The translations under genes and the position numbers were made by a program. From assembly GCA_022868165.1 (NCBI GenBank), contig JALHYA010000004.1, positions 16,457 to 80,456 on the forward strand: 64,000 bases of DNA. The letters run 5' to 3'. Numbering within the stretch: position 1 is the stretch's first letter; the number at the start of each line of letters is the position of its first letter. Below are positions 1-17,561 of the stretch, piece by piece. Under the pieces are notes generated by a model. The model worked only from the letters and a program-made list of their open reading frames with translations, did no database searches and was not told the DNA's origin. This stretch comes from Patescibacteria group bacterium. GTDB lineage: Bacteria; Patescibacteriota; Microgenomatia; UBA8517.

Positions 1-2
1 TC

Positions 3-128
3 TCTACTGGACTAATAGGTTTGGTTATCGTAATTACTGCAATATTTATTGTCGACCTGGTTGGAACTCTTATCGGAATTCCGAACATTCTTAATATCAG
101 CCAACTTTTCAACCAAATTACTAAATAA
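3..128 (+). CDS. T4SS-type pilin-like small membrane protein, C-terminal fragment (5' end outside window)
   Basis: Frame 3 is open from the window edge to TAA at 126-128. The tail STGLIGLVIVITAIFIVDLVGTLIGIPNILNISQLFNQITK mirrors the last TM helix and tail of the paralogs at 132, 473 and 1340. Confidence 0.6.
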   Translation, partial: STGLIGLVIVITAIFIVDLVGTLIGIPNILNISQLFNQITK

Positions 129-131
129 TAA

Positions 132-461
132 ATGTTACTCGCACAAGAACCTATTTCGAATCCAATCGGTCCTAAATTCTCATCGGGGGTGGGTTTCTTC
201 CAAAAGTTTATTCCCTCATTAATAGGAATCGCTTTTGTTGTTGGCTCCTTGGTTTTCTTTTTTGTTATGATAATCGGAGCAATTCAATGGATTACATCGG
301 GCGGAGATAAGGCAGCAATAGAAGCCGCTAGGGGGAAAATTGCAAATGCAGTAATTGGTTTCGTACTTCTTTTGACGGTTTTCGCAATCATTAAGGTAAT
401 CGAGAGCTTTTTTGGAATAAACATACTAATACTTGACATTGGTATTCTGAAAATTCAATAA
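132..461 (+). CDS. T4SS-type pilin-like protein (TrbC/VirB2-like mini-pilin)
   Basis: 109 aa with two hydrophobic helices around the motif WITSGGDKAAIEAARGKI. This motif is shared with 473..808 and, in diverged form, with 1340..1639. Confidence 0.7.
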   Translation: MLLAQEPISNPIGPKFSSGVGFFQKFIPSLIGIAFVVGSLVFFFVMIIGAIQWITSGGDKAAIEAARGKIANAVIGFVLLLTVFAIIKVIESFFGINILILDIGILKIQ

Positions 462-472
462 TAGTTCATAGC

Positions 473-808
473 ATGCTAAATCTTTTGTACGCAGCCACCG
501 ATATTAATCTTCAGCCCTCCGGCCAATTTTCCCAACTTGGAAACTTAACTATCGGCGGAATTGTGTCGGGACTGATTAGATTTATTCTGGTAGTTGCAGC
601 ACTTGTGTTTTTCTTCATCTTGGTTATCGGCGGAATTCGCTGGATAGCATCAGGGGGTGACAAAGCACAAACGGAAGCCGCTAGAAATCAAATTACGGCA
701 GCATTGGTCGGCTTGGTTATTGTTTTTGCCGCTTGGGCGATAGTCCAGCTAATTAACACATTCTTCGGAATCAACATCTTCCAACTCACAATTCCTTCAG
801 CGGTTTGA
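473..808 (+). CDS. T4SS-type pilin-like protein (paralog)
   Basis: 111 aa with motif WIASGGDKAQTEAARNQI between two TM helices and a FFGINIF tail like 132..461. Confidence 0.7.
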   Translation: MLNLLYAATDINLQPSGQFSQLGNLTIGGIVSGLIRFILVVAALVFFFILVIGGIRWIASGGDKAQTEAARNQITAALVGLVIVFAAWAIVQLINTFFGINIFQLTIPSAV

Positions 809-810
809 GC

Positions 811-868
811 TCTAGAGGTTAGAAATTGGAAGCTAGAAACTAGATTATGAAGTTGGATAGTGGATTAG
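811..868. repeat. GGAAGTT-type heptamer array, left arm flanking the four-helix-bundle gene
   Basis: The sequence tctagaggttagaaattggaagctagaaactagattatgaagttggatagtggattag reads as 7-nt units (gaggtta|gaaattg|gaagcta|gaaacta...). It is an imperfect inverted copy of 1240-1299. Confidence 0.7.
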
Positions 869-1230
869 AACTTTCTCCAATTCTCTTTAAGTTTTGTAAG
901 CTTCCTACCAACAACATTATATCTTTCGATTAGTTCGTCGGCTTTATTGGGCGAAAGATACTTCCTCGCTTTGGCAAAAGCTATGTGATTTATCATCTCA
1001 TTTGCCTCCCCGATTGCGTCTCTGAGAAATTTTTTGAATACGGCCACCGTTTCTCTTTTTGCGTATCCTTCTGCAATAAGGGCGGGAATAGCTCTAGAAG
1101 CTCTTCGCATTTGGTCGGTCAAAAGAAATTCTTCACGTCTCGGGAATTCCTTAATCAGATCCTCAATTTCCAAAGACAACCCGAACGATTCTTCGTAAAC
1201 GTCTAAATCAAGAAAGCTTTTAATTGCCAT
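865..1230 (-). CDS. four-helix bundle protein (family formerly called 23S rRNA intervening-sequence protein)
   Basis: 121 aa. The pattern LDVYEESFGL...FPRREEFLLTDQMRRASRAIPALIAEGYAKR...GEANEMINHIAFA matches the family's QxRRAxxSIxxNIAEG core. The gene is antisense to the surrounding pilin genes. Confidence 0.85.
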   Translation of the reverse strand: MAIKSFLDLDVYEESFGLSLEIEDLIKEFPRREEFLLTDQMRRASRAIPALIAEGYAKRETVAVFKKFLRDAIGEANEMINHIAFAKARKYLSPNKADELIERYNVVGRKLTKLKENWRKF

Positions 1231-1239
1231 CTCGTTTCA

Positions 1240-1299
1240 CTATCCCACATCTATCCTCGCTAATCCAGCCTCTCACTTCTAACTTCCAACCTCTAAACC
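1240..1299. repeat. GGAAGTT-type heptamer array, right arm (inverted) flanking the four-helix-bundle gene
   Basis: The reverse complement ggtttagaggttggaagttagaagtgagaggctggattagcgaggatagatgtgggatag aligns by eye at roughly 70% with 811-868. Confidence 0.7.
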
Positions 1300-1339
1300 A
1301 GGCTTGCTCAAAGCACTTCATTAGGTTAAACTTTGCTTA

Positions 1340-1639
1340 ATGTTGGCTCAAGCTGGAAGTTCAGATGTCGCAAAACTCTCAGATCTCGAGGGTGTCTTTG
1401 GAAATGTAGTTGGGATACTTTTAGGGCTAGCAGGTATTGCGCTGTTTATAATGCTTGTGGTCGGGGGTTTTAAATACATCACAGCCGGAGGAGACCCCAA
1501 AGGAATCGAGAGCGCAAAAAAAACCCTGACTTATGCAATCGGCGGAATTGTACTAATTGCTGCAGGATTTTTAATTCTTCAATTCATAAAGCAATTTACG
1601 GGAGTTGATGTAACACAATTTAGAATTTTCCAACCATAA
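1340..1639 (+). CDS. T4SS-type pilin-like protein (diverged paralog)
   Basis: 99 aa with motif YITAGGDPKGIESAKKTL between two TM helices. TAAACT lies 7 nt upstream of the ATG. Confidence 0.65.
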   Translation: MLAQAGSSDVAKLSDLEGVFGNVVGILLGLAGIALFIMLVVGGFKYITAGGDPKGIESAKKTLTYAIGGIVLIAAGFLILQFIKQFTGVDVTQFRIFQP

Positions 1640-1646
1640 ATGAGTC

Positions 1647-3806
1647 ATGGACTCGTTTAAACCTGCCACCTTAAAAATTTTTAGTCTAATTTCTCTTCTT
1701 TTTTCCCTATATACCCTATACCAAATACTTATCCCTCGCACCGCGTTGGCCCAGGTTCCCCAACCCTATGTTCCCTGCAACGAAACTCGACCAAACGAAT
1801 TCAACTCTTTAAGGCCTTATCAGGCAAGCCCGTGTGTCAAGGAGGTATCCCAAACGGCAAATTTTTGCGGCAACCGCCTGGTTCTAACCGATAGCGTAAC
1901 TGCCGTGCAAACAACCTCCCCTGCCTATGCTCCAAACTGCACTTTTATTGAAAATAATCTTTACCAATGTACATATAAAGTTACCGGCAAAACAGCGAAT
2001 TATAAAATCGACCTTTCTAAAGCAAAGTTTCCAATTCTTGGCAACACCGAAGATAATTTAAACGACGCACAAAAAACAAACGACTATGTCAGCTGGTATC
2101 TTAACGGGGTGAACAATAGGGCCGAGTCGACCTATCTTAATTCAAACAATCCAACGGATTTGGACAAACTTGTAAACTTTTCGGGTCCTTTAAATAAACT
2201 CCTCCCTTGGGAGGTTCAACTCAATGATAGAATTACCTCCATCAAGGCGGCCGGCAATAGCCAACACGACCAGATGGTCGCCTGTGAGGTCGCAGGAATT
2301 CCTGTTCCCTGCAACGACCAAGGTGTAATTGGCTTGATAGATACAAAATTGAGACTCTCCTACTGGAATGGCCATCTTCCCCCTCTTCCGAGTGACTCAA
2401 AATATCAGGGAAAAGACTTCAGTGTTTATTGGAAAGATTATCAAAGATGGAGAGGAAATAGCTGCACCCCCGACTTCACAATCCCTGTTATAAACAAAAA
2501 TATTTATCTCTGTTTTGACAATCCCTTAAAACCAAACTTTTGGTCAAACCTTTTTGCATATATCCCGATGTCTTCGACAGAAGACAGAAAAGGGGAAGTT
2601 GCAGTAGAATCGCAAAACGTAAGTGCTGCTTCCCCCGACTTAAAGATCAGTAACGTTAACCTAACGACCACGCCTGCCGACCTGTTTTTCGCACACACCG
2701 AAGAAGCCAATGGTCTTGCTGAAAAACTACAGATGACTTTCGTTCCGCAAGGCGGAGACACAACCGGGGCCGTAACAGGGGTGTCGCCGGCAGAGGCCTG
2801 CGACTTAACAAATATTCGTTCGAACCCCGGGGACAATCTTTTCGCGGGAACCATCGACGGGAATCTAACCTACGACGCAGAATTTACTTGCAACTTCCAG
2901 GGAATCGCTACCGAGAGTGCCTGTAAAAAAGATGTTTCTGTCGGCCTTGGCGTAACAACAAAAACTCCTTTGGCGGATGATTTATGGTCAAGATTGGTTG
3001 CGGGCCCAGCAGGAATTTTTAAAAGAATATTTCCCAAGGTAGGCGAGGGAGGCGCAATTTTGGGAATTCTTGATATTCCGGCTGCAACCAAGGTTAGTTA
3101 TTCGGGAAGCGGAGTTTCTGCGGCAAACCCAGGCCAGCGTTCCGGGGAAAGCGCGGAACTTTACTTTCCTCACGTCGGAGGAATCTCCGAATATTTCTTA
3201 AAAGGAATTCAAACCATACTTCGGCCAAAAGGCTTCGGTGAACAAATTATATCGGGAGAGCCCGGAACTTTTACCTCAAGCGGGAAAATAAACTGCGATA
3301 CCTCTGCCCCCGATGTTTCTCTTCGAGGAACGATTGATAAGCAGGCCTATTTTCAACTCGCCCTAAACTGGCTCGGGGGCCAACCGGGAACCAATGCTCT
3401 CGAGTGTTATAACGACACTGTTAGAAAAGCGAGGGAAGCCGGAATAAATACGGCACTTACGCTTTGGCTCTGGTTACACGAAAGCGATGCCAGCAACTAC
3501 GACTTGGGATACCTTCAAGATTTCGGCGCGGCCAGTCCTGCTCCTGTTGGTTATGTTGACCAGATAAATGAATTCTTCGCCCGCGCCAGAAGATATACCC
3601 CGAGTAGTCCTCTCTGCTCCGGGAGAAATGTAACCCCCATACAGGCTTTCGCTTACATTTATAAGTCGGGTACGTGCGACCCTAATACGACAGATGCCCA
3701 CGGAGTATCCGCCGCCGATTTTTACCAAGCAATGGTTGACCAGTGGTCTTTGGTATCTAGTTGTCCATTTCCCAATTCTCCGACAGATACCAGTTGTCAG
3801 AATTAA
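1647..3806 (+). CDS. large secreted Cys-rich protein of unknown function (T4SS-like cluster)
   Basis: 719 aa with an N-terminal hydrophobic signal-like segment (LKIFSLISLLFSLYTLYQILIPRTALA). I recognised no family motif. It follows the last pilin gene after 7 nt. Confidence 0.7.
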   Translation: MDSFKPATLKIFSLISLLFSLYTLYQILIPRTALAQVPQPYVPCNETRPNEFNSLRPYQASPCVKEVSQTANFCGNRLVLTDSVTAVQTTSPAYAPNCTFIENNLYQCTYKVTGKTANYKIDLSKAKFPILGNTEDNLNDAQKTNDYVSWYLNGVNNRAESTYLNSNNPTDLDKLVNFSGPLNKLLPWEVQLNDRITSIKAAGNSQHDQMVACEVAGIPVPCNDQGVIGLIDTKLRLSYWNGHLPPLPSDSKYQGKDFSVYWKDYQRWRGNSCTPDFTIPVINKNIYLCFDNPLKPNFWSNLFAYIPMSSTEDRKGEVAVESQNVSAASPDLKISNVNLTTTPADLFFAHTEEANGLAEKLQMTFVPQGGDTTGAVTGVSPAEACDLTNIRSNPGDNLFAGTIDGNLTYDAEFTCNFQGIATESACKKDVSVGLGVTTKTPLADDLWSRLVAGPAGIFKRIFPKVGEGGAILGILDIPAATKVSYSGSGVSAANPGQRSGESAELYFPHVGGISEYFLKGIQTILRPKGFGEQIISGEPGTFTSSGKINCDTSAPDVSLRGTIDKQAYFQLALNWLGGQPGTNALECYNDTVRKAREAGINTALTLWLWLHESDASNYDLGYLQDFGAASPAPVGYVDQINEFFARARRYTPSSPLCSGRNVTPIQAFAYIYKSGTCDPNTTDAHGVSAADFYQAMVDQWSLVSSCPFPNSPTDTSCQN

Positions 3807-3842
3807 GCCATTGTTGGCACTGGTAAGGCTAGTGTATTATTT

Positions 3843-3937
3843 ATTGTTAGAGGTTAGAAGTTTGAAATGGGAAGTTAGAAAATTCCAATATCTAGCATCG
3901 ATGTCTAGCGTCCAGCATCCAACTTCCCACATCAAAC
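3843..3937. repeat. GGAAGTT-type palindromic heptamer element, intergenic 'empty' copy
   Basis: The left arm gtttgaaatgggaagttaga (3860-3879) is complementary to the right arm tccaacttcccacatcaaac (3918-3937). The loop contains the near-palindrome ctagcatcgatgtctag. Confidence 0.7.
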
Positions 3938-3943
3938 AAAAAA

Positions 3944-5629
3944 ATGTCAAAAATAAAAAAATTATTAACAAAATCAATTTTGTCCCTGTTTATTTCTCTG
4001 CTTTTTATTTTTTCGTTTGCCCCATCAGCTTATGCTCAAAATTGGTTTAGCCAATCTCCTTCCGAATGGTACACAAAAGTTTATGATACAAATAATCCCA
4101 CAGAAATTTTTGGAGAAAGATATACGGCTGCGCAGGTTGAATGGGTTATCTACACAATTCTTTTCTGGCTTCCAACCAAAATCATTGGACCCCAGGTAAT
4201 GAGCTGTGCACTTTCGGGGGATCTATCCTCTTGCATCGAAAGCCTTTTTTCCTCCTCTACAACCCAGCCCCAGCCGCTAGCGACATCTAGCGAGAGCCTT
4301 TTATCTGCAGTCTTTCTCGAGGAACGTCCAATTTCTGCCATTACATATTTCAAAGACTTGGCCCGCAAATTCAAACTTATTCCGGAAGCCCAAGCACAAG
4401 GTTTTGGTTTCCAGTATGCTCTAAGTCCAGTTCTTGAAATGTGGAAGGCTTCGCGAAATGTTGCTTACGGCCTTATTATTTTGGCAACAATTATTTTGGC
4501 TTTTATGATAATGTTTCGGGTTAAAATATCTCCCCAAGTTGTTATCTCCGTACAGTCCGCAATCCCCAAGCTGGTAATTGCATTAATCTTAATCACTTTT
4601 TCCTATGCAATAGCGGGTTTTCTTATCGATTTGATGTACGTTGTAATTGGACTCGTGAGCCTCGTTGGAAAGGGGTTCTTCCCCTCGGCCCTTCATTTAT
4701 CTTCTACATCAATTTTTAGGTTACTTACCGAGGGACACTTTTTTAATATTAACGTTCCATTGGGCGCAATCGGTTTAATGGCCCTATATCTTTTCTTTTT
4801 CTGTCTAATTCTTGCTCTTACTCTTTTGATGACCCTCGGCACTGTAGGAGTGGGTTTGGGAGCAGTTCTTGGGGCCGTGGGCATTACGTCGATTACAGCT
4901 GGAACGGGAGGTACTTTTGGTATTATTCTTATCATAATCGGTGCTTTGGTTCTCCTTATTCTTTTGGTTAGCCTCCTATGGATGGCGTTTAAAACTCTCT
5001 GGACTATTCTTAAGGCATATGTAACAGTGCTCTTGCTAACCATTTTCGCTCCGTTTCAACTTCTTCTTGGAGTAATTAGTTCTAACTTCGGTTTTGGGGC
5101 CTGGCTAAAAAGTTTCGTTTCGAATCTTTCAACTTTTATTGTCGTTGGGGTTCTTTTCCTTTTGTCTTTCGTTTTTCTTTTTCAAGGCTTCAGCCTAGCA
5201 TTCCAAGAGTTTGTGGGTGGAAACGTTGTTCAGCGTTTTTTTAGTGTGATATTTGGAACGGGGGCAGTAAGCCTTTTTACAGGTTCTACCAACGCCAGCT
5301 GGCCTCCCCTTTTGGGTCTGGGAGGAAATAGCGGAGTCGCGCTTTTGTTTCTTGGGGTAAGTTTTGTCCTCTTCACTATGATTCCAAAGGCGTCTGATAT
5401 AATAAAGTCCATGATTGAAGGAAAACCGTTCGCCTATGGAACAGCAATTGGGGAAGTCGCAGCGCCTTTTAGAATGGTTGCGGGCTCACCTCCTGGCCGG
5501 GTAATCCAGGACGCCTTGACGCGCAAGGGCACATCCCAAACAATTACTAAAGTTGCAACTCGACTTCCAGCAGGTTCAGTTAGGACTTTTCTTGAGGATC
5601 TGGCGGCTGGAACTAGCAGGCGACCTTGA
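3944..5629 (+). CDS. polytopic membrane protein, VirB6/TrbL-like candidate
   Basis: 561 aa with a signal peptide (…FSFAPSAYA|QNW) followed by many long hydrophobic helices and Gly-rich loops. The size, topology and position between pilins and the VirB4-like gene fit VirB6/TrbL. I saw no diagnostic motif. Confidence 0.5.
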   Translation: MSKIKKLLTKSILSLFISLLFIFSFAPSAYAQNWFSQSPSEWYTKVYDTNNPTEIFGERYTAAQVEWVIYTILFWLPTKIIGPQVMSCALSGDLSSCIESLFSSSTTQPQPLATSSESLLSAVFLEERPISAITYFKDLARKFKLIPEAQAQGFGFQYALSPVLEMWKASRNVAYGLIILATIILAFMIMFRVKISPQVVISVQSAIPKLVIALILITFSYAIAGFLIDLMYVVIGLVSLVGKGFFPSALHLSSTSIFRLLTEGHFFNINVPLGAIGLMALYLFFFCLILALTLLMTLGTVGVGLGAVLGAVGITSITAGTGGTFGIILIIIGALVLLILLVSLLWMAFKTLWTILKAYVTVLLLTIFAPFQLLLGVISSNFGFGAWLKSFVSNLSTFIVVGVLFLLSFVFLFQGFSLAFQEFVGGNVVQRFFSVIFGTGAVSLFTGSTNASWPPLLGLGGNSGVALLFLGVSFVLFTMIPKASDIIKSMIEGKPFAYGTAIGEVAAPFRMVAGSPPGRVIQDALTRKGTSQTITKVATRLPAGSVRTFLEDLAAGTSRRP

Positions 5630-5638
5630 AACAACAAA

Positions 5639-8203
5639 CTACCTTCTAAGGATTGGCTTCAATAAAACAATTCTTTCTTCAATGTTAGCTCCAACCTCTG
5701 CAAATTCCTTGGATAATTCCTTCCTGTACGCGTCACTTGCCATGGCCTCCTCCGCTATCCCAGCAAGCATTCCAGCCCTCGCGACAACGGTGGCATAAAA
5801 TTTCGTCATCCTTGCCATATATTCGCCATAGTGTGCATCAATATCGTCTCTTTTCTCGGGCAAATACCTAAAGGCAGTAATCCATTTAGCAATATCCATT
5901 GCCCAATCACTCCTTCTTGATTTGTCTATACCGGCGGCTCCCCACATCCCATGCTCATATGACGTACGAAGTACTACTAAAAGCGGAACAAGCGAGATGG
6001 TCAAGGCTGTCATTGGCAGCTGTTCGTCCCTTTCACCCAAATCGGACCTTTTAAGTAGCTCCTTTAAGTTGTCGGGGCTGGAAAAGAACACTTCCAACTG
6101 ATCCTTCGCTGCCATTTCTGGATCAAGCATTGTAACAACATAGCGAACGGTTTGCCCAATAGTAATCATCCAACGATAGAGTGCTTGATCTCCCATCTTT
6201 TCCCATTTCAACTCGGACATCTTTTCCCCGGTTCTTAACTGATCCCAGACTGTCTGTTGCCCCGGCCTTTCGACCGGTTCGGCCCCTACGTTGACAAATT
6301 TGGGTTTGATGTCTCTATCGCCCTTAAATGAAATTGTATTCAAAAAGTTTAGAGAGGCTATTTCTGGTGGAAAAAAGAAAGGAATTTTCAAAAAAAGAGG
6401 TTTTTCAATTCCGTTCTCGTCTTTGACCATAATTTTAGAATCTTTTATTGATGTTTCCCAATACCAAGCCATCTTTTCCAATAATTTTCGCGTTTTCGGA
6501 TTCCATTCGAAGTTGCCTTCCGGCACCCAAAGTTTGTTCCATGCAGTTCTTAATTTAGGATCCTGATTAACAATTTTTTCTACCTCAATCCAACCCTGTT
6601 TCCAATCTGGAGCATGATCTCCTAGCTCGCTGCGATAATCAGGGCTCGTGGGTGGCAAAAAACCCTTAGACCAGGCCTTGTTTTGATTAACTCTCTCGGT
6701 CTCTCTCCAATAGGCTGGTGTGCTTATGTCGGTCGCAACAGTAGGTCCCCCGAGAGATTTTTCTCTTTTGACATGTAATTCCCAGGGCTCGCTTTTTCTT
6801 TTTTCAATGTCTTTAGTTTCTCGTACATCAATAGAATAATTCCATCCCCACGACATCTCTGCGGAAGACATATGGCCCCAGTCCATCACTACTCCTGCCC
6901 TGGCTACTACTGCAGCCAGTTTGTCCTCTATTTTTCTTGAAGGGGAAAACCAATCCCCAAGCTTCTCTATGTATTTTGCTTTTACAGTGCTAATTAAGTT
7001 GTCCATTCCGACTTGGTCAAAACCTTTAATCCCGTTTTCTTCTTTTTCCAACTTACTTAACTCTTCCCGAGTATTTCCCGTTAGCAAAGTTTCCATTATT
7101 GCCAAATAGGTTCTTTTCTTTTCTTCAACGCTTCCCATGGCGTACCAATTTAGAAGATTAAGCGGAACAGGAGTATCTCCGGTTTTGCCCTTGTAAATAG
7201 CCCAGCCGCCTTCCACTTTGAAATCGCCAATTTTTTGTATAAGCCCTTCTGCATATACCTTGGCTTTTTCTCTAATCTTATCTTTGAGCTTCTCTTCTTG
7301 TGCCCGTTCGGCATCTGGGTCATAGTCGGTAAATACTTTACGAATGAAATATGTTTCTGCCGGTGTCAATTTCTCCATAAAAGTACTATTTGCCGGATCA
7401 TCAAGGTCAATTTGCTGTACCGCAGCAACATTCATTCTCCAATATGCACTGTCATCCTGATACCGAATTGCTTTCTCCCTCAATCCGTCGGCTTTCTCTT
7501 TTAGGACTACTTTCTCCGTATCCGTTAACTTCAATCCAGGCAGTTCTTTGGCAAATGTCCGCTCGTAAAAAGAAGCAGTCGGATCGCTTCGAAGAGGAAC
7601 GCTGACCCACTGCATCATCTTCTTGCCGTCGTAAAAAGCAGGAAGAACGGATCCTAGTCCTTCCAATAATCGAAAGTTGGCCTCACCCCACGTTGCGTCA
7701 ATTGCTATCCTATCTAACCAAGAATCAATCTTTGTCCGAACGTCTTCTTCTGGGCTCGCGCCTGGAACCTTCTCCGGCCACTCCTCTTGCCGGGCTTTTT
7801 GCACGGCTTCGTGCAAATTATCAAACCACATCTCCTGCCTTCTGGAATCGTAAGGATAAGGGCTCTTAAACCTGAGGAGTTGGTTATCAAGCATTCCCTG
7901 AAGCTCGTTTAGCTGCGCTCCCATCAGTTTCTCAAAATTTTTTGGGATCTCTTTTTCTACCCTTGCTGCCAATTCTTCGGCCTCCCTGATTAACTTATCT
8001 TTCTGAGGCCCACTCGCTTCCCTTCTTACTTTATCCAAGTTTGCCAATGCTCTAAGTCCGTTTAAGGTCGCGAGAAAGCTGGGCTCGACATAAAAATACT
8101 CGCGGCCTTCTCCTCTCAAGGGGTCATATTCTCCACCCCCACCCTCCTTGCCCTGTGCTTGGTAGTTAATTCGGGGGCCGAAATCGGGTCTGTTTTCCAT
8201 CAC
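5639..8203 (-). CDS. large soluble hypothetical protein (orphan, Trp/Lys/Glu-rich)
   Basis: An 854-aa uninterrupted ORF antisense to the rest of the cluster, with no TM segment and no recognisable motif. Confidence 0.75.
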   Translation of the reverse strand: MMENRPDFGPRINYQAQGKEGGGGEYDPLRGEGREYFYVEPSFLATLNGLRALANLDKVRREASGPQKDKLIREAEELAARVEKEIPKNFEKLMGAQLNELQGMLDNQLLRFKSPYPYDSRRQEMWFDNLHEAVQKARQEEWPEKVPGASPEEDVRTKIDSWLDRIAIDATWGEANFRLLEGLGSVLPAFYDGKKMMQWVSVPLRSDPTASFYERTFAKELPGLKLTDTEKVVLKEKADGLREKAIRYQDDSAYWRMNVAAVQQIDLDDPANSTFMEKLTPAETYFIRKVFTDYDPDAERAQEEKLKDKIREKAKVYAEGLIQKIGDFKVEGGWAIYKGKTGDTPVPLNLLNWYAMGSVEEKKRTYLAIMETLLTGNTREELSKLEKEENGIKGFDQVGMDNLISTVKAKYIEKLGDWFSPSRKIEDKLAAVVARAGVVMDWGHMSSAEMSWGWNYSIDVRETKDIEKRKSEPWELHVKREKSLGGPTVATDISTPAYWRETERVNQNKAWSKGFLPPTSPDYRSELGDHAPDWKQGWIEVEKIVNQDPKLRTAWNKLWVPEGNFEWNPKTRKLLEKMAWYWETSIKDSKIMVKDENGIEKPLFLKIPFFFPPEIASLNFLNTISFKGDRDIKPKFVNVGAEPVERPGQQTVWDQLRTGEKMSELKWEKMGDQALYRWMITIGQTVRYVVTMLDPEMAAKDQLEVFFSSPDNLKELLKRSDLGERDEQLPMTALTISLVPLLVVLRTSYEHGMWGAAGIDKSRRSDWAMDIAKWITAFRYLPEKRDDIDAHYGEYMARMTKFYATVVARAGMLAGIAEEAMASDAYRKELSKEFAEVGANIEERIVLLKPILRR

Positions 8204-8325
8204 TGTTTATTTTAACACTCCCTCTTTTCAACATACAAACGGCTGTTTGTGAAAAAGGGTTGCTCTTGCGCGGAAGGCTTCACATTGTAACCTAGATTTA
8301 GAGTATCAAAGTACTCCTTTGTTTT

Positions 8326-9423
8326 ATGGAACAACACGCCATACCGCAACAAATATCTTCCTACCAATTCCGGTTGGTGGGAGATATGACCCTCAAGCAG
8401 TTCTTTCAGCTTGCAGGGGGAGCTTTGGTTGCACTTCTTTTCTATGCCGCCCCTCTTCCCGGCTATGTTAAATGGCCTTTTATAATTGTTTCGGCTCTTT
8501 TGGGGGCTGCTCTGGCATTTTTGCCTTTTGAAGAAAGACCGCTGGAGCGATGGATTATTGCTTTCTTTAGAGCCGCCTACTCCCCCACAAGCTTTGTCTG
8601 GCAAGAAACAAAAGCCACGCCCGTGTTTTATCGAGAAGAGGCCAAGGCTCCCACGGAAAAGATAATTGCCCCCGGCGGAGAAGCCGCCTTAAATGCATAT
8701 CTTGCCGCAACTGCCCAACCCCAAGGATTTTTGGGAAAACTAGAACTGGGGGAAAGTGGATTTCTGTCTAAGCTCGGCAAGCTTTTTGGGGCACCCGCGC
8801 CGGTTTCCGCACCGACGGTTGCTGTTCAACCTAGTGTTCCCGTTGCCCCAAGCCCAGCTCCCCTTCCCGCAACCGTGCTGGTTGCCAGACCCCAACAACA
8901 AATTGGGGTAAAGATTCCTACAACTCAATATATTAGAGTTGTTCCTTCGGCAAAACCAAAAATGGTTGTCGAGGAAAAACTAGCCGGCGGTAAGCCAATA
9001 ACCGAAAGGCTGCTTGATATTCAACCCATGGCCGGCCGGGGTTTTGCTCCCGGCGGGAAAGCGGCGCAGTTTTCTCCCGAGGCGGCCCCACCCATTCCGC
9101 CGACCACCCCAAACACCATTGTCGGTCAGGTCCTTGATTCTTCCGGCCGAATTATCGAAGGTGCAATTTTGGAAATTCGCGATGCCGCCGGTCGCCCCGT
9201 ACGAGCTCTTAAAAGCAACAAGGTCGGCCACTTTGTCGTTGTCACCCCATTGCAAAACGGCCGATACGAAATTATTACGGAAAAAGACGGATTTAGTTTT
9301 GACCCTGCAACCTTTGAAGCAACGGGAGAAATAATTCCGCCGATTGCCATTCGCGCCAGAATCAACATCGTCGCCGCCGAACTGCCAACAATCAGCAATC
9401 AGCAATCAACAATCGGCCAATGA
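8326..9423 (+). CDS. PrgI/VirB3-like membrane protein with C-terminal carboxypeptidase-regulatory-like beta-sandwich
   Basis: The N-terminus (IPQQISSYQFRLVGDMTLKQFFQLAGGALVALLFY...PFEERPLERWIIAFFR) has the PrgI-type two-TM layout. The C-terminus IVGQVLDSSGRIIEGAILEIRDAAGRPV...NGRYEIITEKDGF resembles a CarboxypepD_reg fold. Confidence 0.55.
   Translation: MEQHAIPQQISSYQFRLVGDMTLKQFFQLAGGALVALLFYAAPLPGYVKWPFIIVSALLGAALAFLPFEERPLERWIIAFFRAAYSPTSFVWQETKATPVFYREEAKAPTEKIIAPGGEAALNAYLAATAQPQGFLGKLELGESGFLSKLGKLFGAPAPVSAPTVAVQPSVPVAPSPAPLPATVLVARPQQQIGVKIPTTQYIRVVPSAKPKMVVEEKLAGGKPITERLLDIQPMAGRGFAPGGKAAQFSPEAAPPIPPTTPNTIVGQVLDSSGRIIEGAILEIRDAAGRPVRALKSNKVGHFVVVTPLQNGRYEIITEKDGFSFDPATFEATGEIIPPIAIRARINIVAAELPTISNQQSTIGQ
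9389..9416 (+). repeat. tandem heptamer repeat CAATCAG x4 at the CDS junction
   Basis: The units read caatcag|caatcag|caatcaa|caatcgg, flanked by degenerate units ctgccaa and ccaatga. The array ends in the ATGA stop/start overlap at 9420-9423. Confidence 0.85.
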
Positions 9424-10079
9424 AAATCCCTATAATATCAACTCCCGACAAACCCTTGACCGCTTCCAGCCAAGAATTTCTTCCAATTGCGGACATAACC
9501 GACGATATTGTTCTTTATCGGGACGGCGGAGCTGCTTTGATCATGGAGTCCACTTCTCTCAATTTCAGTCTACTCTCTGAAAAGGAACAGGAGGCCGTCA
9601 TTGCTGCCTACGCCGCTTTAATCAACTCCCTTTCCTTTGCGGTCCAGATTGTCGTCAGAACCAAAAGAAAAGATATTACAAGCTATATAAATTATATTGA
9701 CGAAAATGCTCAAAAAATTAGAAATCCTAAATTGGCACAACTGATGCAAGGTTATAAAGCCTTCATTATGGAATCCGTTAAAAAGAAAAATGTCTTGGGC
9801 AAAAAATTTTATATTGTAATTCCGTTTAGCCAACTTGAGCTGGGAGTAACAAAGGCGCTTTTTTCTTCAACCCGCAGAAAAGGTCCTCTTCCTTTCCCCA
9901 AAAGTTACGTTGTCAAAAAAGCCAAGGTGGTTCTTTATCCCAGACGCGACCATTTAATTCGGCAGACAGGACGGCTGGGCATTCGCTTAAAGCAACTCAC
10001 CACCAACGAATTAATTGAACTTTTTTACAGCGTTTTTAATCCTGAAATTCCGACTGTCAAAAAGGAGGAAACCCAATGA
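9420..10079 (+). CDS. T4SS-associated protein resembling the P-loop-less N-terminal domain of VirB4/TraC-type ATPases
   Basis: 219 aa. FLPIADITDDIVLYRDGGAALIMESTSLNFSLLSEKEQEAVIAAYAALINSL has the pattern seen at conjugative ATPase N-termini. ATGA overlaps couple it to both neighbours. Confidence 0.45.
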   Translation: MKIPIISTPDKPLTASSQEFLPIADITDDIVLYRDGGAALIMESTSLNFSLLSEKEQEAVIAAYAALINSLSFAVQIVVRTKRKDITSYINYIDENAQKIRNPKLAQLMQGYKAFIMESVKKKNVLGKKFYIVIPFSQLELGVTKALFSSTRRKGPLPFPKSYVVKKAKVVLYPRRDHLIRQTGRLGIRLKQLTTNELIELFYSVFNPEIPTVKKEETQ

Positions 10080-11803
10080 AGCCCAAAATCCCGAGCGTGC
10101 AGCTTTCGATTGCCCAAAAGCAAAATCTTTTGGATATTATCGCTCCCCAATCTCTCGATATTGATTTCGACTATATAACCCTAAACGGCGTTTTCTTTAG
10201 AACCATTTTTATTGCCGGCTATCCCAGATTTGTTGCTCCGGGCTGGCTCGAGCCGATCGTCAATTTCAACAACTCCCTGGATATTTCCTTCTCTATTTAC
10301 CCGGTCGAGGGTAAAACGGTCCTTGATGATTTACGAAGAAAAATTGCCGAGATGGAGGCCGAAATCGGAACCGACTTGGAAAGAGGAAAAATCGTTGACC
10401 CCTCAACACAGGCAAAACTTGAGGATGCAAGAAACCTGCAGGAACAACTTGTAAAGGGCGCAGAGCGTTTTTATCAGTTTTCTTTCTACATAACAATTCC
10501 GGCTCCGACACTTGAGGAGCTCAATCACATAACCCACCAGGTTGAATCAACTCTCGGTTCGCTCTTGATTGTTTCCAAGCATGCAATTTTGGACATGGAT
10601 TCGGGTTTCCTATCGACTGCCCCCTTTGGTTTAGACAAGCTGGCAATAACAAGAAACATGGACACAACTTCACTTTCCACAACTTTTCCGCTAACAAGCG
10701 CCGAGCTTTCCAGCGACCGCGGAGTCTTGTATGGAATTAATTCCAAAAACGAATCTTTTATTATTTTCGACCGCTTTTCAATGGAAAACAGCAACATGAC
10801 GATTTTCGCTACTTCGGGTGCGGGAAAATCCTACTTCGTAAAACTTGAGGCCTTAAGAAGTCTAATGCTGGGAACGGAAATAATCGTTCTGGACCCGGAA
10901 AGCGAATACAAAAGCCTTTGCGATGCTGTTGGGGGACAATTTATAACTTTTTCTTTCAACTCTCCTTCAAAAATAAATCCGTTTGACCTTTCGCAAATTT
11001 ATGAGGAAGGAGAAAATCAACTGGGACTAAAAATTCTTTCTCTCCACTCTCTATTTAAGGTAATCATGGGCCAGATTACTCCCATACAAGAAGCTCTTTT
11101 GGATAGGTCGTTGGTTGCGACCTACCGGGCCAAGGGAATAACCCAAGACCCTACAACACAGAAAAAAGAGCCGCCTTTAATGGAAGACCTTTATAAAATG
11201 CTTGTGGGAATGGAAACTCCCGAGGCTTTGGACTTGGCCGCAAGGATTGAAAAATTCGTCAGAGGCTCTTTTGTGGGAATCTTTGACAGGCAAACAAATG
11301 TCGATTTGAATAATCCGTTCACCGTTTTTTCTGTCAAAGACCTTCAGGATGTTCTGCGCCCAATCGCAATGTTTGTAATCCTCGATTATGTTTGGACAAG
11401 AGTCAAAAAGGATATTAAAAAGAGGCTTTTAATTGTAGATGAGGCCTGGCACATGATGAAATACCCGGACTCTGCACAATTTTTGTGGTCGGTGGTCAAA
11501 AGGGCCAGAAAATATTATTTGGGTCTTACAACTATCACCCAAGACGTAGAAGACTTTTTGGGTCAGGATATCGGAAAGGCGATAGTTACCAACTCCGCTT
11601 TGCAGCTTCTTCTTAAACAATCGCCTGCGGCTATAGATAAAATTGCCGAAGTTTTTTATTTGTCGCAGGGAGAAAGACAGCTTCTCTTGGCCGCCAACAT
11701 CGGTGAGGGAATCTTCTTTGCCGGTCCTCACCACGCTCCCATTAGGATTGTTGCCTCGGATGCGGAACATAAACTAATATCCACCAAACCCTTAGCAACA
11801 TGA
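10076..11803 (+). CDS. VirB4/TrbE-like type IV secretion ATPase
   Basis: 575 aa with Walker A (FATSGAGKSYF), Walker B (LLIVDEAWHMM), and LGLTTITQDVEDF. Confidence 0.8.
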   Translation: MKPKIPSVQLSIAQKQNLLDIIAPQSLDIDFDYITLNGVFFRTIFIAGYPRFVAPGWLEPIVNFNNSLDISFSIYPVEGKTVLDDLRRKIAEMEAEIGTDLERGKIVDPSTQAKLEDARNLQEQLVKGAERFYQFSFYITIPAPTLEELNHITHQVESTLGSLLIVSKHAILDMDSGFLSTAPFGLDKLAITRNMDTTSLSTTFPLTSAELSSDRGVLYGINSKNESFIIFDRFSMENSNMTIFATSGAGKSYFVKLEALRSLMLGTEIIVLDPESEYKSLCDAVGGQFITFSFNSPSKINPFDLSQIYEEGENQLGLKILSLHSLFKVIMGQITPIQEALLDRSLVATYRAKGITQDPTTQKKEPPLMEDLYKMLVGMETPEALDLAARIEKFVRGSFVGIFDRQTNVDLNNPFTVFSVKDLQDVLRPIAMFVILDYVWTRVKKDIKKRLLIVDEAWHMMKYPDSAQFLWSVVKRARKYYLGLTTITQDVEDFLGQDIGKAIVTNSALQLLLKQSPAAIDKIAEVFYLSQGERQLLLAANIGEGIFFAGPHHAPIRIVASDAEHKLISTKPLAT

Positions 11804-14163
11804 GCCAAGAAGAAGCTCGAAAACTTTTAGATGCATGGGCGTTTTTCGATAAACATCCCGAAGCCAAAAGCTGGGAAGGAATGCCGCGGCCAGAATTTTA
11901 TCGGCTGGTACAAATCATTGCCGGCACTGACAATTTGGTCGATGCCAAGGAATATTTCGAGGGAGTTGCCGCAGGAACCATAACCGGCGACATGCCGACC
12001 GCACTTCTTGAGGCCCAAAAAGAAGGGCAAGATATTTCCACGCGCCTTTCGACTTCCAAAAGTGCTTCGAGAGTCACAAAGGGTTGGTTGGCCAAATTAA
12101 GCACTAAGAGCGCAGAGGAAGTAGCAGAAAAGCAGGTGGCTGCGGCCCAAGTTCGGGCCGTAGTCGAAAGAGCAGAGGAAGAAACTCCCGCACTCAAAGA
12201 GGTTCCAAAGCCTAAAGCAACCAAGACGGTCGTGCCCTCTTCCGCGGAGACCCCGCCCTCGGCACCGGCCACAACACCGTCTACACCCGTTGAGGAAGGC
12301 CTTAGTATAAAAATTTCCAGCGGGGCATTTGGGTCTTTTGAACAAATGGCCGGAAAAGCGGCAGGAACTCCCCTGGCAATAATTTCTATGTTCTCTCCCC
12401 CCAAGAGCTCGATGACTCCCCAAACAAGCGCCGCTGTTTCGAGCGCCCTAAGTCTTTCCCAAGTAGCACAAAGGGCCGAAAAACTTCCTGAGGCGGACAG
12501 AGAGCACATCTTGTCTTTGGTTAACAATCTTAGAAAGGCCGAGTTTTCTTTTGTCCAACAAACCCGGCTTCTTTCCGTTCGAGAAATCACTATTCTCAGC
12601 GGTTCCGAGTTCGGGATGGACCAGGAAAGCATAGTTGCCCTCCTCGGCGGAGGGCGGGGTATTCCCGAAAGAGGCCCTTCTTTCGTTGCTCGGGTAGGAC
12701 AACAGCTTTTCGGCAGCATCGCCAAAAAGGCGGCAAGCAAGGCAATTGCAGGAGCACTAACCAAAGCAGGAATCTCTGTTGCCGGCAAAGCCGTTGCCGG
12801 AGCCGTAGGTCAGGCCGCAATCCCCATTCCCGGAGTCGGTTTTATTGTCGGCCAAATTATCGACTGGATTGCAAATAAAGCAGTGGATCTGGCCTCCCGT
12901 GTAGCTATCTGGATTAAAGAACACGGAAAAGAAGTTGTCGGGGGTCTTTTGATTGGCGGAGGAATCTTAATCGGCGGGTTTGCCGGATTGGCTGCCGGAA
13001 TTGCTGGCGGAGCAATTGCGCTGGGCGGTTCCGGGCTAAGCACAATCGCATCTGGAATTGGGAGTTTCTTTTCATTTATCTTTACCGGAATAATTCTTCC
13101 TTCAATTGGAATTCCGATATTGGTAGCCCTCTTTGCTGTTCCTGCAGTTATTGTAATTATTCTTTTTATTATCAACTCCAGTGCCTATATTGTCCCTCCT
13201 CGGACGGGATTTATAAGCGGAGAAAATCCTTATATAGGCGTAGAAAAAGTAGCCAGCCCCACGGGGCCCTTTAGCAACGACGACCTTTTCAAAACTCCCC
13301 CGATAGTTGTCGAATATACCATCACAATAACGGCGAAAAAGGGTACTCTGACCAATATAAGTTTTGCTTATGACTGCGAGGTTATAAAAAAGGGCTCGAC
13401 AGAGGACTGCCCTAATGCAAATTTAGTCGACTCGCAAGGGAAAGCAATTACAATTGGGCCGCAAGCAAACTTAAGAATCTCTCCGACCGAGCCCTACAAA
13501 ATTACATATCAAGCCCAGTATTCCGGCGGCCGCTTTCAAGACTCTGCAATTATAGATACCCTGACGGTTACCGCGGACGCGGCAGAACAAAACGGGGCGC
13601 AAGCAAGCGGCGGTGCAGCCGTAATAATCGGAAACCCCCCGACCGGCTGTTTCAGGTTTGATGATTCCTGGCCGGCCAATCTAAAGGCAAATGAGGTTAG
13701 AGCAATTACCGAGCTTACAAGGGCCAGTGTATATATGACAAGACTTTGTGCTGCAGGAGAAATTGTTCTGAAATACGGCGGGAACAACGGCGGTGTCGGC
13801 GGAGATGTTATCGCCGGTCCCAACATTATCACCATCTATTCTGCGGGCGTGCAATATGGACCCACAAGCACCCTCTATACCACAACGCACGAATCGGGCC
13901 ACATCTTTGCAAGAAGATATGGAGGAATTTTTAGACAATATGCGGACACGCCTGGCGTTGGCAATGTTCTTATCTGCACTTATCCTTTCAACAACAGCGT
14001 TGGAGAAAGCTTTCCCGAAATGATAGGTCTTTTTGTGGCCAACAGCCCGGGACATGCCCCAATTAATCTCTTCGGCTGTTTGGGTGGAAGTTTTAAAACC
14101 AAATATCCTGCACACTGGCAGTTTGCGCGAAACGTAATTTTTCAGCAAGACCTGGGGTGGTAA
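11800..14163 (+). CDS. membrane protein with Gly/Ala-rich TM core and C-terminal HExxH (putative zinc peptidase) domain
   Basis: 787 aa. The central region (about aa 330-460) is G/A/I-rich helices. The C-terminal domain carries TTTHESGHIFARRYGG. An ATGA overlap joins it to the VirB4-like gene. Confidence 0.6.
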   Translation: MSQEEARKLLDAWAFFDKHPEAKSWEGMPRPEFYRLVQIIAGTDNLVDAKEYFEGVAAGTITGDMPTALLEAQKEGQDISTRLSTSKSASRVTKGWLAKLSTKSAEEVAEKQVAAAQVRAVVERAEEETPALKEVPKPKATKTVVPSSAETPPSAPATTPSTPVEEGLSIKISSGAFGSFEQMAGKAAGTPLAIISMFSPPKSSMTPQTSAAVSSALSLSQVAQRAEKLPEADREHILSLVNNLRKAEFSFVQQTRLLSVREITILSGSEFGMDQESIVALLGGGRGIPERGPSFVARVGQQLFGSIAKKAASKAIAGALTKAGISVAGKAVAGAVGQAAIPIPGVGFIVGQIIDWIANKAVDLASRVAIWIKEHGKEVVGGLLIGGGILIGGFAGLAAGIAGGAIALGGSGLSTIASGIGSFFSFIFTGIILPSIGIPILVALFAVPAVIVIILFIINSSAYIVPPRTGFISGENPYIGVEKVASPTGPFSNDDLFKTPPIVVEYTITITAKKGTLTNISFAYDCEVIKKGSTEDCPNANLVDSQGKAITIGPQANLRISPTEPYKITYQAQYSGGRFQDSAIIDTLTVTADAAEQNGAQASGGAAVIIGNPPTGCFRFDDSWPANLKANEVRAITELTRASVYMTRLCAAGEIVLKYGGNNGGVGGDVIAGPNIITIYSAGVQYGPTSTLYTTTHESGHIFARRYGGIFRQYADTPGVGNVLICTYPFNNSVGESFPEMIGLFVANSPGHAPINLFGCLGGSFKTKYPAHWQFARNVIFQQDLGW

Positions 14164-14164
14164 A

Positions 14165-14737
14165 ATGTTTCGGATGAATAAAAAAATCGTTGTTGTTGGA
14201 ATAATTATTTTTATCTTGCTTTTTGGAGCAATTTTCCTTCTTGGTGCGGGACGTAAAAAAACGCCCACTCCTGTTCCAACTACAACCTCGGGGGTTTCCT
14301 GGCAAGGCCTCGTCGCCGGCAAGAGCACAAAGGACCAGGTCAATGGTGTACTGGGAAACCCTCTCAGTGAAACTTCCTCGGGAAATCAAACTACAAACAC
14401 ATATTCTTCCTTAAGCGAAACCCGACCCAACAGTGCCGTTTTTGACAACAACTCCAATACCGCACTGTTTTTAAGGCAAATCGTTTCCGCTAAAGATACC
14501 AAAACAACAAAAGACATTGTGGATGTGTATGGGGAAACAAACACAAAGCTTTACGGCCTTGATTGGATAAACGGGATTTACCTTTTTGTTTATCTGGACA
14601 AGGGGATTGCATATCTTGCAAACCCGGACAGCAACACCCTATTTGAAGTCTGGTATTTTCCTCCCACAACGCTCGACAATTTCCTAAAGACTTGGGCAAC
14701 CGATTATTCAACTCAACCCAAAAACCAACCCTTCTAG
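14165..14737 (+). CDS. membrane-anchored hypothetical protein
   Basis: 190 aa with an N-terminal TM helix (IVVVGIIIFILLFGAIFLLGA). It starts 2 nt after the preceding stop. Confidence 0.65.
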   Translation: MFRMNKKIVVVGIIIFILLFGAIFLLGAGRKKTPTPVPTTTSGVSWQGLVAGKSTKDQVNGVLGNPLSETSSGNQTTNTYSSLSETRPNSAVFDNNSNTALFLRQIVSAKDTKTTKDIVDVYGETNTKLYGLDWINGIYLFVYLDKGIAYLANPDSNTLFEVWYFPPTTLDNFLKTWATDYSTQPKNQPF

Positions 14738-15852
14738 CCCTGAAGTCTAACCGGCATTATAAGGTGAAGATAGTTGGGGTCTGTGGCTTCCTGAAACACT
14801 CCAGGAGCGGTGGCGGATGAGAAAGTTAGCGTTATGGCATCTCCTACGGCTGACTGCAAGAATTCTTCAACAAATCGATAATTGAATGCAATTTCAAATC
14901 CCTTACTTTCGCCCTCGACCTTTGCATCAACTACCGCCTTCTGGCTTCCGGTTTGGTTACTTTCGGCGCTTAACGAAAGTCCCCCTTTTGAAGTAGCAAA
15001 TCGAATTATGTTTGCCGAGTCTCTGGCAAAAACCGAGGATGTTTTGACCGCCCTTAAAAGTTCCTCTTTGTCCACTCCGACTTTTACTTGTCCTCCTTTG
15101 GGGATTATTTTTTCAAAATCGGGAAAGTCCCCTTCCAAAATTCTTGTCGAAAAAACACAATCCCCCACTTCAAAAACCACCTGACTGTCTTTTTCTTTAT
15201 AGGAAAGGGAGATCTCTTCTGCCTCCGCCGAAAGCCTGGAAATTTCTCCCAAAGCGCTTTTCGGCAAAATAATCTTTTGCGGCTTTCCTCCCCCACCCAA
15301 AGAAATCTTCTTTTGGGAAAGCCTAAACCCGTCGGTTGCAACCATTGTCAAGAATCCTTTCTGAAAAAGAAAAAGAACCCCCGTAAGAATGGGCCTTGTC
15401 TCGTCTACTGATGCCGAAAAAACAACCTGAGAAAGGGCCCGGGAAAATTCTTCTTTGGGTAGAAGTATTGAGTTTTGTTTATCTACGCTCTGAGGAATTG
15501 AAGGAAAGTCCCCGGCGTTCATTCCGGAAATGTTGCTTTCAAAACCCTGTGCCGAAATTTGAATTTTTTCTTTTTCTACGGATAATTCAATTTGTCCCGG
15601 AGGAAGATTGGCTACAAGTTCCGAGATAACCCTTGCCGGTACTGTAATTTCTCCCTCTTTTTGTACCTGTGCCCCTATGGAAATTGCAACCGAAATTTCT
15701 AAATTTGTTGCCAAAATGGAAAGTTTTGTCTTCTTTGCCGAAAGAAAGATATTTCCCAAGACAGGAAGTTGGGCTTTGCTGGAAGTAAATCTTAAGGCCG
15801 TATTAAGGGCTTTGGATAAGTTCTCCTGAAGAACAGTAAGTTTCATTTCCAT
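14734..15852 (-). CDS. dnaN: DNA polymerase III beta sliding clamp
   Basis: 372 aa starting MKLTVLQENLSKALN, with clamp-like three-domain length. It lies directly downstream of dnaA. Confidence 0.9.
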   Translation of the reverse strand: MEMKLTVLQENLSKALNTALRFTSSKAQLPVLGNIFLSAKKTKLSILATNLEISVAISIGAQVQKEGEITVPARVISELVANLPPGQIELSVEKEKIQISAQGFESNISGMNAGDFPSIPQSVDKQNSILLPKEEFSRALSQVVFSASVDETRPILTGVLFLFQKGFLTMVATDGFRLSQKKISLGGGGKPQKIILPKSALGEISRLSAEAEEISLSYKEKDSQVVFEVGDCVFSTRILEGDFPDFEKIIPKGGQVKVGVDKEELLRAVKTSSVFARDSANIIRFATSKGGLSLSAESNQTGSQKAVVDAKVEGESKGFEIAFNYRFVEEFLQSAVGDAITLTFSSATAPGVFQEATDPNYLHLIMPVRLQG

Positions 15853-15893
15853 GAGTATATAAAAAGGTTCTCAAAACACAAGTCGTACTTTTG

Positions 15894-16006
15894 ATTATGA
15901 CAGCATTCAAAAAACCGTGAGTGCAAGCTCTCAAATGAATTGAATGCTGACATGTCATCCTTCAAAACAAAAAAGCCTCAACTGTAAGATCGTAGAAGGA
16001 TGTCAT
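15894..16006 (-). repeat. promoter-proximal structured repeat, copy a (upstream of dnaN)
   Basis: The minus strand reads atgacatccttc-N33-gaaggatgacat-gtcagcattcaattcat-hairpin-tttttt-gaatgctgtcataat. It is collinear with the copies at 17887 and 47742. Confidence 0.75.
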
Positions 16007-16033
16007 TAAAATAGTCGTGATAGTAGTAGGTGA

Positions 16034-17538: not shown

Positions 17539-17561
17539 TGTGGGAGGACAGGAGTAAGGGG

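Follow-up and report, generated by a model that had tools for sequence, protein, structure and literature searches.

A probable Patescibacteria-type chromosomal type IV secretion system beside dnaN and dnaA in a Microgenomatia bacterium

Gene content of the cluster

We analyzed a stretch of 64,000 nucleotides (nt) of the assembly GCA_022868165.1 (contig JALHYA010000004.1, positions 16,457 to 80,456), referred to here as the window, and specifically the gene cluster at its positions 1 to 14737, whose products resemble components of type IV secretion systems (T4SS). The cluster encodes VirB2-like pilins, a secreted protein of 719 amino acids (aa), a polytopic VirB6-like protein of 561 aa, an antisense 854-aa protein, PrgI-like, TrsD-like, and VirB4-type proteins, a membrane-anchored 787-aa protein, and a 190-aa protein (Table 1). 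The 854-aa and 561-aa proteins are the NCBI entries MUP46_01360 and MUP46_01355, both labeled "Patescibacteria group bacterium." The window was extended with a Logan contig, L001 (13,440 bp), which has 0 mismatches over an overlap of 5,706 nt and adds 7,734 nt upstream. About 72 kb was therefore searched, consisting of the 64-kb window and the genes called in the 7.7 kb of L001 upstream of it; the search of the window for relaxase, VirD4, VirB11, and integrase domains covered open reading frames (ORFs) of at least 120 aa. An ORF map of window positions 1 to 18000 recovered, at the same coordinates, every ORF listed in an earlier annotation of this DNA (the original prediction), and hidden Markov model (HMM) searches with Pfam and NCBIfam support its assignments of the pilins, PrgI, the VirB4 N-domain-like protein, and VirB4, as well as the identity of dnaN and dnaA.

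To collect related loci, a single genome of each GTDB species was scanned with VirB4, and the best 80 loci, at 56 to 83% VirB4 identity, were kept; the gene neighbors in these loci were located by tblastn. The informative labels among the 80 loci are those of Patescibacteria metagenome-assembled genomes, mostly of Microgenomatia (Woesebacteria, Gottesmanbacteria, Daviesbacteria, Curtissbacteria, and others); many of the other labels look wrong.

Table 1. Features of the cluster, adjoining genes, and coupling protein genes at the corresponding place in relatives
Feature	Position	Strand	Characteristics
Fifth VirB2-like pilin gene, 3' end	1..126	+	Full length 121 aa (L001 7497-7862); aligns with the other pilins
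Sixth of eight VirB2-like pilins, 109 aa	132..461	+	PF18895 (T4SS_pilin) 24.8 bits, just under the 26.6 cutoff
Seventh of eight VirB2-like pilins, 111 aa	473..808	+	PF18895 36.3 bits, over the 26.6 cutoff
23S rRNA-intervening-sequence protein (bAvd-like four-helix bundle)	865..1230	-	PF05635 95.3 bits; inside pilin array
Eighth of eight VirB2-like pilins, 99 aa	1340..1639	+	PF18895 40.2 bits; Mbov_0395 pilin-like 5.6e-8
Secreted Cys-rich modular protein, 719 aa	1647..3806	+	One N-terminal hydrophobic segment, 18 Cys
VirB6-like polytopic protein, putative channel subunit, 561 aa	3944..5629	+	Predicted VirB6-like fold
Antisense soluble protein, 854 aa, small T4SS-linked family	5639..8203	-	Occupant of hypervariable slot
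Intergenic, 122 nt, between the divergent 854-aa gene and prgI-trsD-virB4 operon	8204..8325		Coordinates and sequence read
PrgI/VirB3-like membrane protein, 365 aa, Pro-rich linker	8326..9423	+	PF12666 28.7 bits (cutoff 27), residues 6-88
TrsD-like protein, 219 aa, separately encoded N-terminal part of VirB4	9420..10079	+	TrsD/TraD NF041427 2.4e-7
VirB4-type ATPase, monoderm MPF_FATA kind, 575 aa	10076..11803	+	NF045971 (CD1110 family) 373 bits, cutoff 325
Membrane-anchored protein, 787 aa	11800..14163	+	Hydrophobic segments at 332-468; HExxH...ExxAE metallopeptidase domain
N-terminally anchored protein, 190 aa, partner of the HExxH domain	14165..14737	+	One N-terminal hydrophobic segment
dnaN	14734-15852	-	Pfam, unambiguous
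dnaA	16177-17538	-	Pfam, unambiguous
Slot coupling protein gene, L051	5544-7748	-	
Slot coupling protein gene, L064	5555-7738	-	
Slot coupling protein gene, L043	1036-3273	-	
Slot coupling protein gene, L053	5659-7857	-	
Slot coupling protein gene, L060	5518-7719	-	

The VirB4 motor is encoded in two pieces

The 575-aa ATPase matches PF19044 (1.2e-30), and its closest solved relative is the VirB4-like protein of PDB 4ag5 (1.4e-47), with TrwK at 1.6e-4. Its Walker A (SGAGKS) and Walker B (LLIVDEAW) motifs, as well as the HExxH motif (HESGH) of the 787-aa protein, are present in the translations as originally described. The mollicute VirB4_plasma model is divided between two adjacent genes: its positions 132 to 286 match the 219-aa protein, and its positions 289 to 893 match the ATPase. 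This N-terminal match and the hit to NF041427 bear out the earlier description of the 219-aa protein as resembling the N-terminal part of VirB4. The trsD gene has an ATGA overlap at both ends (9420-9423 and 10076-10079), and a third overlap joins virB4 to the 787-aa gene (11800-11803); all three had been predicted and were read directly in the sequence. Among the 80 related loci, TrsD is encoded upstream of virB4 in 72, and prgI lies directly upstream of trsD-virB4 in 70. The predicted PrgI/VirB3-like protein exceeds the PF12666 cutoff, by a small margin, and its C terminus is a CarboxypepD_reg-like domain (PF13620, 29.5 bits, residues 264 to 324). By its position, the intergenic stretch upstream of prgI may be a promoter region shared with the 854-aa gene; promoter and terminator scans gave background levels only.

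The cluster lies beside dnaN and dnaA in most related loci

The earlier claim that the cluster ends on dnaN was confirmed by direct reading of the sequence, in which the TAG of the 190-aa gene convergently overlaps the dnaN stop at 14734-14737. The cumulative GC skew has its minimum at 14 to 18 kb, and 6 of the window's 25 DnaA-box-like sites lie within 15.8 to 17.9 kb. These observations indicate that the cluster abuts the probable origin of replication. In 64 of the 80 related loci, dnaN is located no more than 9 kb from virB4. The Woesebacteria-like subset retains the complete gene order: pilins, 719-aa gene, 561-aa gene, antisense gene, prgI, trsD, virB4, 787-aa gene, small gene, dnaN, dnaA. 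Identity across related loci is graded, at 80 to 83% for VirB4, 66 to 76% for TrsD, 69 to 71% for dnaA, 52 to 63% for dnaN, and 50 to 56% for PrgI, with lower values for the 561-aa (35 to 48%), 719-aa (35 to 52%), and 787-aa (29 to 39%) proteins. The GC content of the cluster is the same as that of the rest of the window. This graded divergence and ordinary GC content argue for vertical inheritance rather than a mobile element.

The original prediction had reported no VirD4, VirB11, relaxase, or integrase in the window, which held for ORFs of at least 120 aa, and had named a relaxase and coupling protein immediately upstream as the finding that would contradict it; the 7.7 kb upstream contains neither. 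No relaxase domain was found in window ORFs of at least 120 aa or in these 7.7 kb, and no search for oriT was made. Likewise, the approximately 72 kb contains no VirD4/TcpA-type coupling protein, no VirB11, and no integrase, and L001, covering the upstream edge of the cluster and its first genes, contains no long direct repeats.

Pilins, the VirB6-like protein, and the 719-aa protein

Four tandem mini-pilin genes had been described originally. The pilin family was supported, but the window start cuts a pilin gene, an antisense gene intervenes, and the true array, as completed by L001, comprises eight paralogues (L001 5781-9373) at 17 to 43% pairwise identity. The PF18895 cutoff is passed by two of the three pilins that are complete in the window. 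The sixth pilin has two hydrophobic helices and is 42 to 43% identical to the adjoining paralogues, and the seventh is 72 to 86% identical to its counterparts in related loci. The first pilin, of 213 aa, carries a Sec-type signal, and its N-terminal domain is Cys-rich. A normal signal peptide is missing in seven of the eight pilins, where a start motif (MLAQ, MLLAQ, MNLLAQ, or MLNLLYAATD) precedes the first hydrophobic helix; this short motif may represent a very short processed leader.

Structure prediction with database homologues gave the 561-aa protein a polytopic helical fold resembling solved VirB6 subunits. R388 TrwI/VirB6 and Legionella DotA differ from it in sequence (9 to 12% identity), and the protein is approximately twice the length of TrwI, with an additional N-terminal extracytoplasmic region that was modeled at low confidence. 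Pfam (TrbL, PF04610, included) and NCBIfam gave no match, and a weak TrbL match (1.5e-3) was obtained for 1 of 18 orthologues. The fold supports the VirB6 part of the original VirB6/TrbL-like designation, and the sequence-family match to TrbL was not found. In two related loci, an additional gene of 160 to 189 aa lies between the 719-like and VirB6-like genes (L084 13949-14431 and L085 14013-14582), at the place of a 137-nt spacer in the window (3807-3943).

The 719-aa protein has a conserved N-terminal part of approximately 540 aa and a variable C-terminal module, and its position behind the pilins is conserved in related loci. While the protein itself matches nothing in Pfam or NCBIfam, the C termini of its orthologues carry SLT_3 lysozyme-like domains in 3 of 12 cases and a GDSL lipase in 1 of 12. 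The window protein and four orthologues have in common a C-terminal W[LI]xES[DG]ASNY...DFG domain; the window C terminus was considered as a possible canonical SLT domain, but its motifs do not align with those of the SLT_3-positive orthologues. Sequence-profile searches of the PDB found no match for the 719-aa, 561-aa, 219-aa, 190-aa, and 854-aa proteins, and the last two also lack any Pfam or NCBIfam match.

A hypervariable antisense slot upstream of prgI

The 854-aa protein had been called an orphan; it is instead a member of a small family, of which a word-indexed search of 5.8 billion proteins found seven homologues and a full profile search of 1.84 billion representatives found approximately 120 clusters at 50% identity. 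Three homologues (36 to 40% identity) were traced to contigs, and each is encoded between the VirB6-like gene and prgI, in identical orientation and in a complete cluster. The protein has a confidently predicted fold that has no counterpart in the PDB.

Every Woesebacteria-like relative has a minus-strand ORF of 530 to 925 aa in this slot, and all of the products are predicted to be soluble. The occupants had no detectable relationship in an all-against-all BLAST comparison, being almost only singletons, and the slot family differs even where VirB4 is approximately 80% identical to that of the window. The possibility that the slot proteins of other relatives are remote homologues of the 854-aa protein was not supported by sequence methods: an HMM of the 854-aa family (99 members) matches only the occupant of L008 (4e-113) and a truncated one in L002. 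For the L005 occupant, the searches found just two homologues in all, and its profile compared with the 854-aa family gave a probability of 0.1. It aligns with a distant member of that family, P0106, at 38% identity over 111 aa, a partial link in sequence that hints at mosaicism.

In five Gottesmanbacteria-like loci, the slot is occupied by a VirD4-type coupling protein (T4CP). The five T4CPs are 66 to 71% identical to each other, have the Walker A motif GKTGTGKS, and are encoded divergently from prgI at a distance of 93 to 160 nt; two were scanned, those of L051 and L064, and both contain TrwB_AAD_bind and TraG-D_C domains. At least two other loci (L039 and L048) have ClpB in the slot. The 854-aa protein lacks a Walker A motif, and its profile does not resemble those of the relatives' T4CPs (hhalign probability 0.1). 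It may be a lineage-specific substrate, in the sense of an effector, or may recruit substrates in place of the coupling protein.

An enzyme and partner pair is exchanged downstream of virB4

The 787-aa protein is anchored and translationally coupled to virB4. It has no signal peptide and is predicted to have a cytoplasmic N terminus of approximately 330 residues, then four hydrophobic segments, and a C-terminal domain that is external. This domain contains HExxH and a downstream ExxAE, whose H, E, H, and two E residues do not vary among 10 orthologues at 25 to 37% identity; as a sequence pattern, the motif pair is a gluzincin signature. A profile of the HExxH domain gave weak matches to the M34 lethal factor (0.0049) and to PPEP-1 (0.07). 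Orthologues at the same position have other domains instead, Peptidase_M23 in 7 of 20 and CHAP in 1 of 20. The VirB1-like cell wall hydrolases of monoderm T4SS (PrgK/TraG type) combine a membrane anchor with an SLT, CHAP, or LytM domain that acts on peptidoglycan, and their genes are in the T4SS operon; the 787-aa protein may be a counterpart of these.

A homologue of the 190-aa protein is encoded after each of the nine HExxH-type genes with available downstream DNA and after none of nine genes of other types (Fisher p = 4e-5), which are followed by different proteins. Since a ranking by VirB4 identity mixes HExxH and other types, the pairing does not appear to be a single-clade effect. From L002 to L059, the catalytic domain after virB4 alternates between HExxH...E, Peptidase_M23, CHAP, and unassigned domains, and the next small gene changes too. 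An enzyme domain and next gene that are swapped together follow the pattern of polymorphic effector-immunity cassettes, which suggests a host-directed envelope weapon and a self-protection protein. That the antisense slot and this cassette behave as exchangeable cargo, and not as machine parts, is a tentative proposal that we consider rather doubtful.

The cluster probably belongs to a known Patescibacteria system

Quinonero-Coronel et al. surveyed 3,035 Patescibacteria genomes in 2025 and found a monophyletic VirB4 clade nested in MPF_FATA, with TrsD the accessory component found most often, PrgI/VirB3 present, pilin arrays of 2 to 11 genes, almost no relaxases, and T4CP genes mostly far from virB4; in Paceibacteria and Microgenomatia, the T4SS lies near dnaA/dnaN (PMC12102498). 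The cluster described here resembles these systems in its MPF_FATA-type VirB4, trsD beside virB4, PrgI/VirB3, a VirB2-like pilin array that can be interrupted by a nonpilin gene, the lack of a relaxase (over approximately 72 kb here), its chromosomal location beside dnaA/dnaN, and putative hydrolase genes downstream of virB4. Since the components and location match those of the survey, the original prediction correctly recognized an already known system. We estimate a probability of about 85% that the region is a Patescibacteria-type chromosomal T4SS, in a Woesebacteria-like member of Microgenomatia. As a whole, it is another instance of a system that has been catalogued in approximately 2,400 genomes of Patescibacteria and was shown to be essential in a single cultivated Saccharibacterium.

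There is no difference in kind from the surveyed systems, but three details go further. PrgI is encoded beside virB4 in 70 of our 80 loci, compared with a 22.6% association reported for Microgenomatia (PMC12102498). A VirB6-like fold was found, whereas VirB6 was scarce in Microgenomatia in the survey (PMC12102498); the fold-level identification fills this gap. A text search of PMC12102498 found neither the hypervariable antisense slot nor the pairing of HExxH and 190-aa proteins, and both the antisense hypervariable gene and the swapped enzyme-partner pair seem not to have been described previously.

The cluster probably derives from a monoderm (MPF_FATA) conjugation apparatus. It shares with the conjugative T4SS of pGO1/pSK41 and CTn2 (CD1110) the VirB4 family NF045971, a separate TrsD, a PrgI/TrsC-type VirB3, and, putatively, a membrane-anchored cell wall hydrolase encoded after the ATPase. 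However, a relaxase, a T4CP, and an oriT are part of those systems, which lack VirB2-like pilins, whereas the present cluster has eight pilins, is fixed in the chromosome, and is without a relaxase or T4CP in the sequence searched. It also resembles modules of the integrated conjugative elements (ICEs) of mollicutes, in that the 99-aa pilin matches Mbov_0395 and TrsD and VirB4 jointly cover Mbov_0397. All of these scores are under the equivalog cutoffs (32 versus 40 bits and 255 versus 590 bits), and the mollicute modules are located on mobile ICEs.

Proposed function and alternative explanations

The absence of a relaxase and coupling protein from the approximately 72 kb searched, together with chromosomal inheritance beside dnaN/dnaA, means that the cluster most likely does not serve conjugation. 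The HMM matches, the synteny, and this absence support the original description of a chromosomal, nonconjugative T4SS-like machine. Its further statement that most of the mass of the machine lies in proteins without a recognizable family now applies only in part, as a VirB6-like fold was recognized for the 561-aa protein, a gluzincin-type metallopeptidase domain for the 787-aa protein, and lysozyme-like domains in orthologues of the 719-aa protein. We favor, with moderate confidence, a nonconjugative function in host interaction. The motor is split between the 219-aa TrsD-like protein and the 575-aa ATPase, whose genes are translationally coupled, as shown by the HMM matches and the ATGA overlaps. 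The PrgI/VirB3 family member would dock this motor at the membrane, the VirB6-like polytopic protein would form the channel, and the eight divergent VirB2-like pilins would assemble into a pilus or conduit. Judging from the domain content of orthologues, the 719-aa protein and the anchored metallopeptidase may breach the cell wall, either the bacterium's own or that of its host. Most likely, the machine would serve to exchange protein or other macromolecules with host cells in a contact-dependent way, by analogy with the homologous cluster of Southlakia epibionticum (SEML1_0006-0019), which has no recognizable coupling or relaxase proteins and which Wang et al. showed in 2023, by transposon sequencing, to be essential for epibiotic growth (PMC10633639).

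Other explanations of the cluster were weighed against this one. One is an ICE or its remnant, with a relaxase and a coupling protein located beyond the sequence examined; the five tRNA genes approximately 7 kb upstream would be consistent with this, tRNA genes being common integration sites. The VirB4, TrsD, and PrgI families are indeed those of Gram-positive conjugative elements, and some related loci contain a VirD4-type T4CP inside the cluster. However, no relaxase, T4CP, or integrase was detected in approximately 72 kb, the gene order beside dnaN/dnaA is kept in 64 of 80 loci with divergence graded like that of dnaA and dnaN, the GC content is unremarkable, and L001 has no long direct repeats, such that we regard an ICE as very improbable. 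For a DNA uptake machine (ComB-like or archaeal Ced-like), importing host DNA for nucleotides or genes, neither a relaxase nor a T4CP would be expected, and comF, recG, and radA adjoin the T4SS in class ABY1 (PMC12102498). VirB4 also gave weak matches to the CedB (49 bits) and CedD (32 bits) DNA import models, but these scores are far under the family cutoffs of 700 and 600, respectively, and no competence or recombination genes adjoin the cluster. Furthermore, competence in S. epibionticum needs comEC and type IV pili, and according to a 2025 review comEC is dispensable for viability, whereas the T4SS is essential (PMC12857230). This makes it less probable that DNA uptake is the essential role, and we consider the explanation unlikely.

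Similarly unlikely, in our judgment, is an organelle mainly for adhesion or pilus display, in which the eight pilins provide attachment and antigenic or host range variation and no substrate is translocated. The divergence of the eight paralogues (17 to 43% identity) would fit this role, as would the common occurrence of pilin arrays in Microgenomatia (PMC12102498) and the tubular structures, possibly T4SS pili, reported in a 2026 preprint at the parasite-host interface of another cultivated member (bioRxiv 10.64898/2026.06.21.733656). However, a full VirB4/VirB3/VirB6 translocon and envelope hydrolases are retained and include the most conserved parts, and adhesion of Saccharibacteria is credited to type IV pili (PMC12857230). 

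Candidates in the question of what is transported are the T4SS-linked hypervariable soluble protein, encoded at the place of the coupling protein of some relatives, and the enzyme-plus-partner cassette after virB4, the sole parts of the cluster that we consider worth further study. Should one of them turn out to be a substrate, or to act on the host as an effector, the way in which these ultrasmall episymbionts exploit their hosts would become clearer, as would the reason for their narrow host range.

Neighboring genes

The gene for a 23S rRNA-intervening-sequence protein inside the pilin array is not found at the corresponding place in L082, L084, and L085 and is probably not part of the machine. 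A diversity-generating retroelement around this bAvd-like gene was considered and rejected, as there are no template or variable repeats nearby and no reverse transcriptase, only RNase H. Upstream of the array, L001 encodes a divergent SpoIID, a bPH_2 membrane protein, two unassigned proteins, five tRNAs, and a NUDIX protein. The SpoIID-domain gene (572 aa; L001 3987-5705, minus strand) lies 2 to 3.7 kb upstream of the window start, divergent from the first pilin gene, an arrangement also present in L082/L083 and L084; it may be a functional member of the cluster, as an additional cell wall enzyme. The tRNA genes (L001 53-392 and 1028-1115) are Ser-tga, Arg-gcg, Ser-cga, Arg-ccg, and Ser-gga, and an imperfect direct repeat of 42 nt (76% identity) is located ahead of the first and after the last of them.

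From 18 to 64 kb, the window encodes housekeeping functions, including YidC, RNase H, L25, LeuRS, MetRS, GroEL, TsaD, glycosyltransferases, RmuC, and an AddA-like helicase. A few kilobases past dnaA, a 913-aa DUF4012 protein (21721-24462, plus strand) adjoins an O-antigen-ligase-like membrane protein. A separate adenylate kinase is encoded at 33923-34585, and a 425-aa ORF at 37701-38978 (plus strand) fuses an adenylate kinase domain, with its lid, to GTP cyclohydrolase II.

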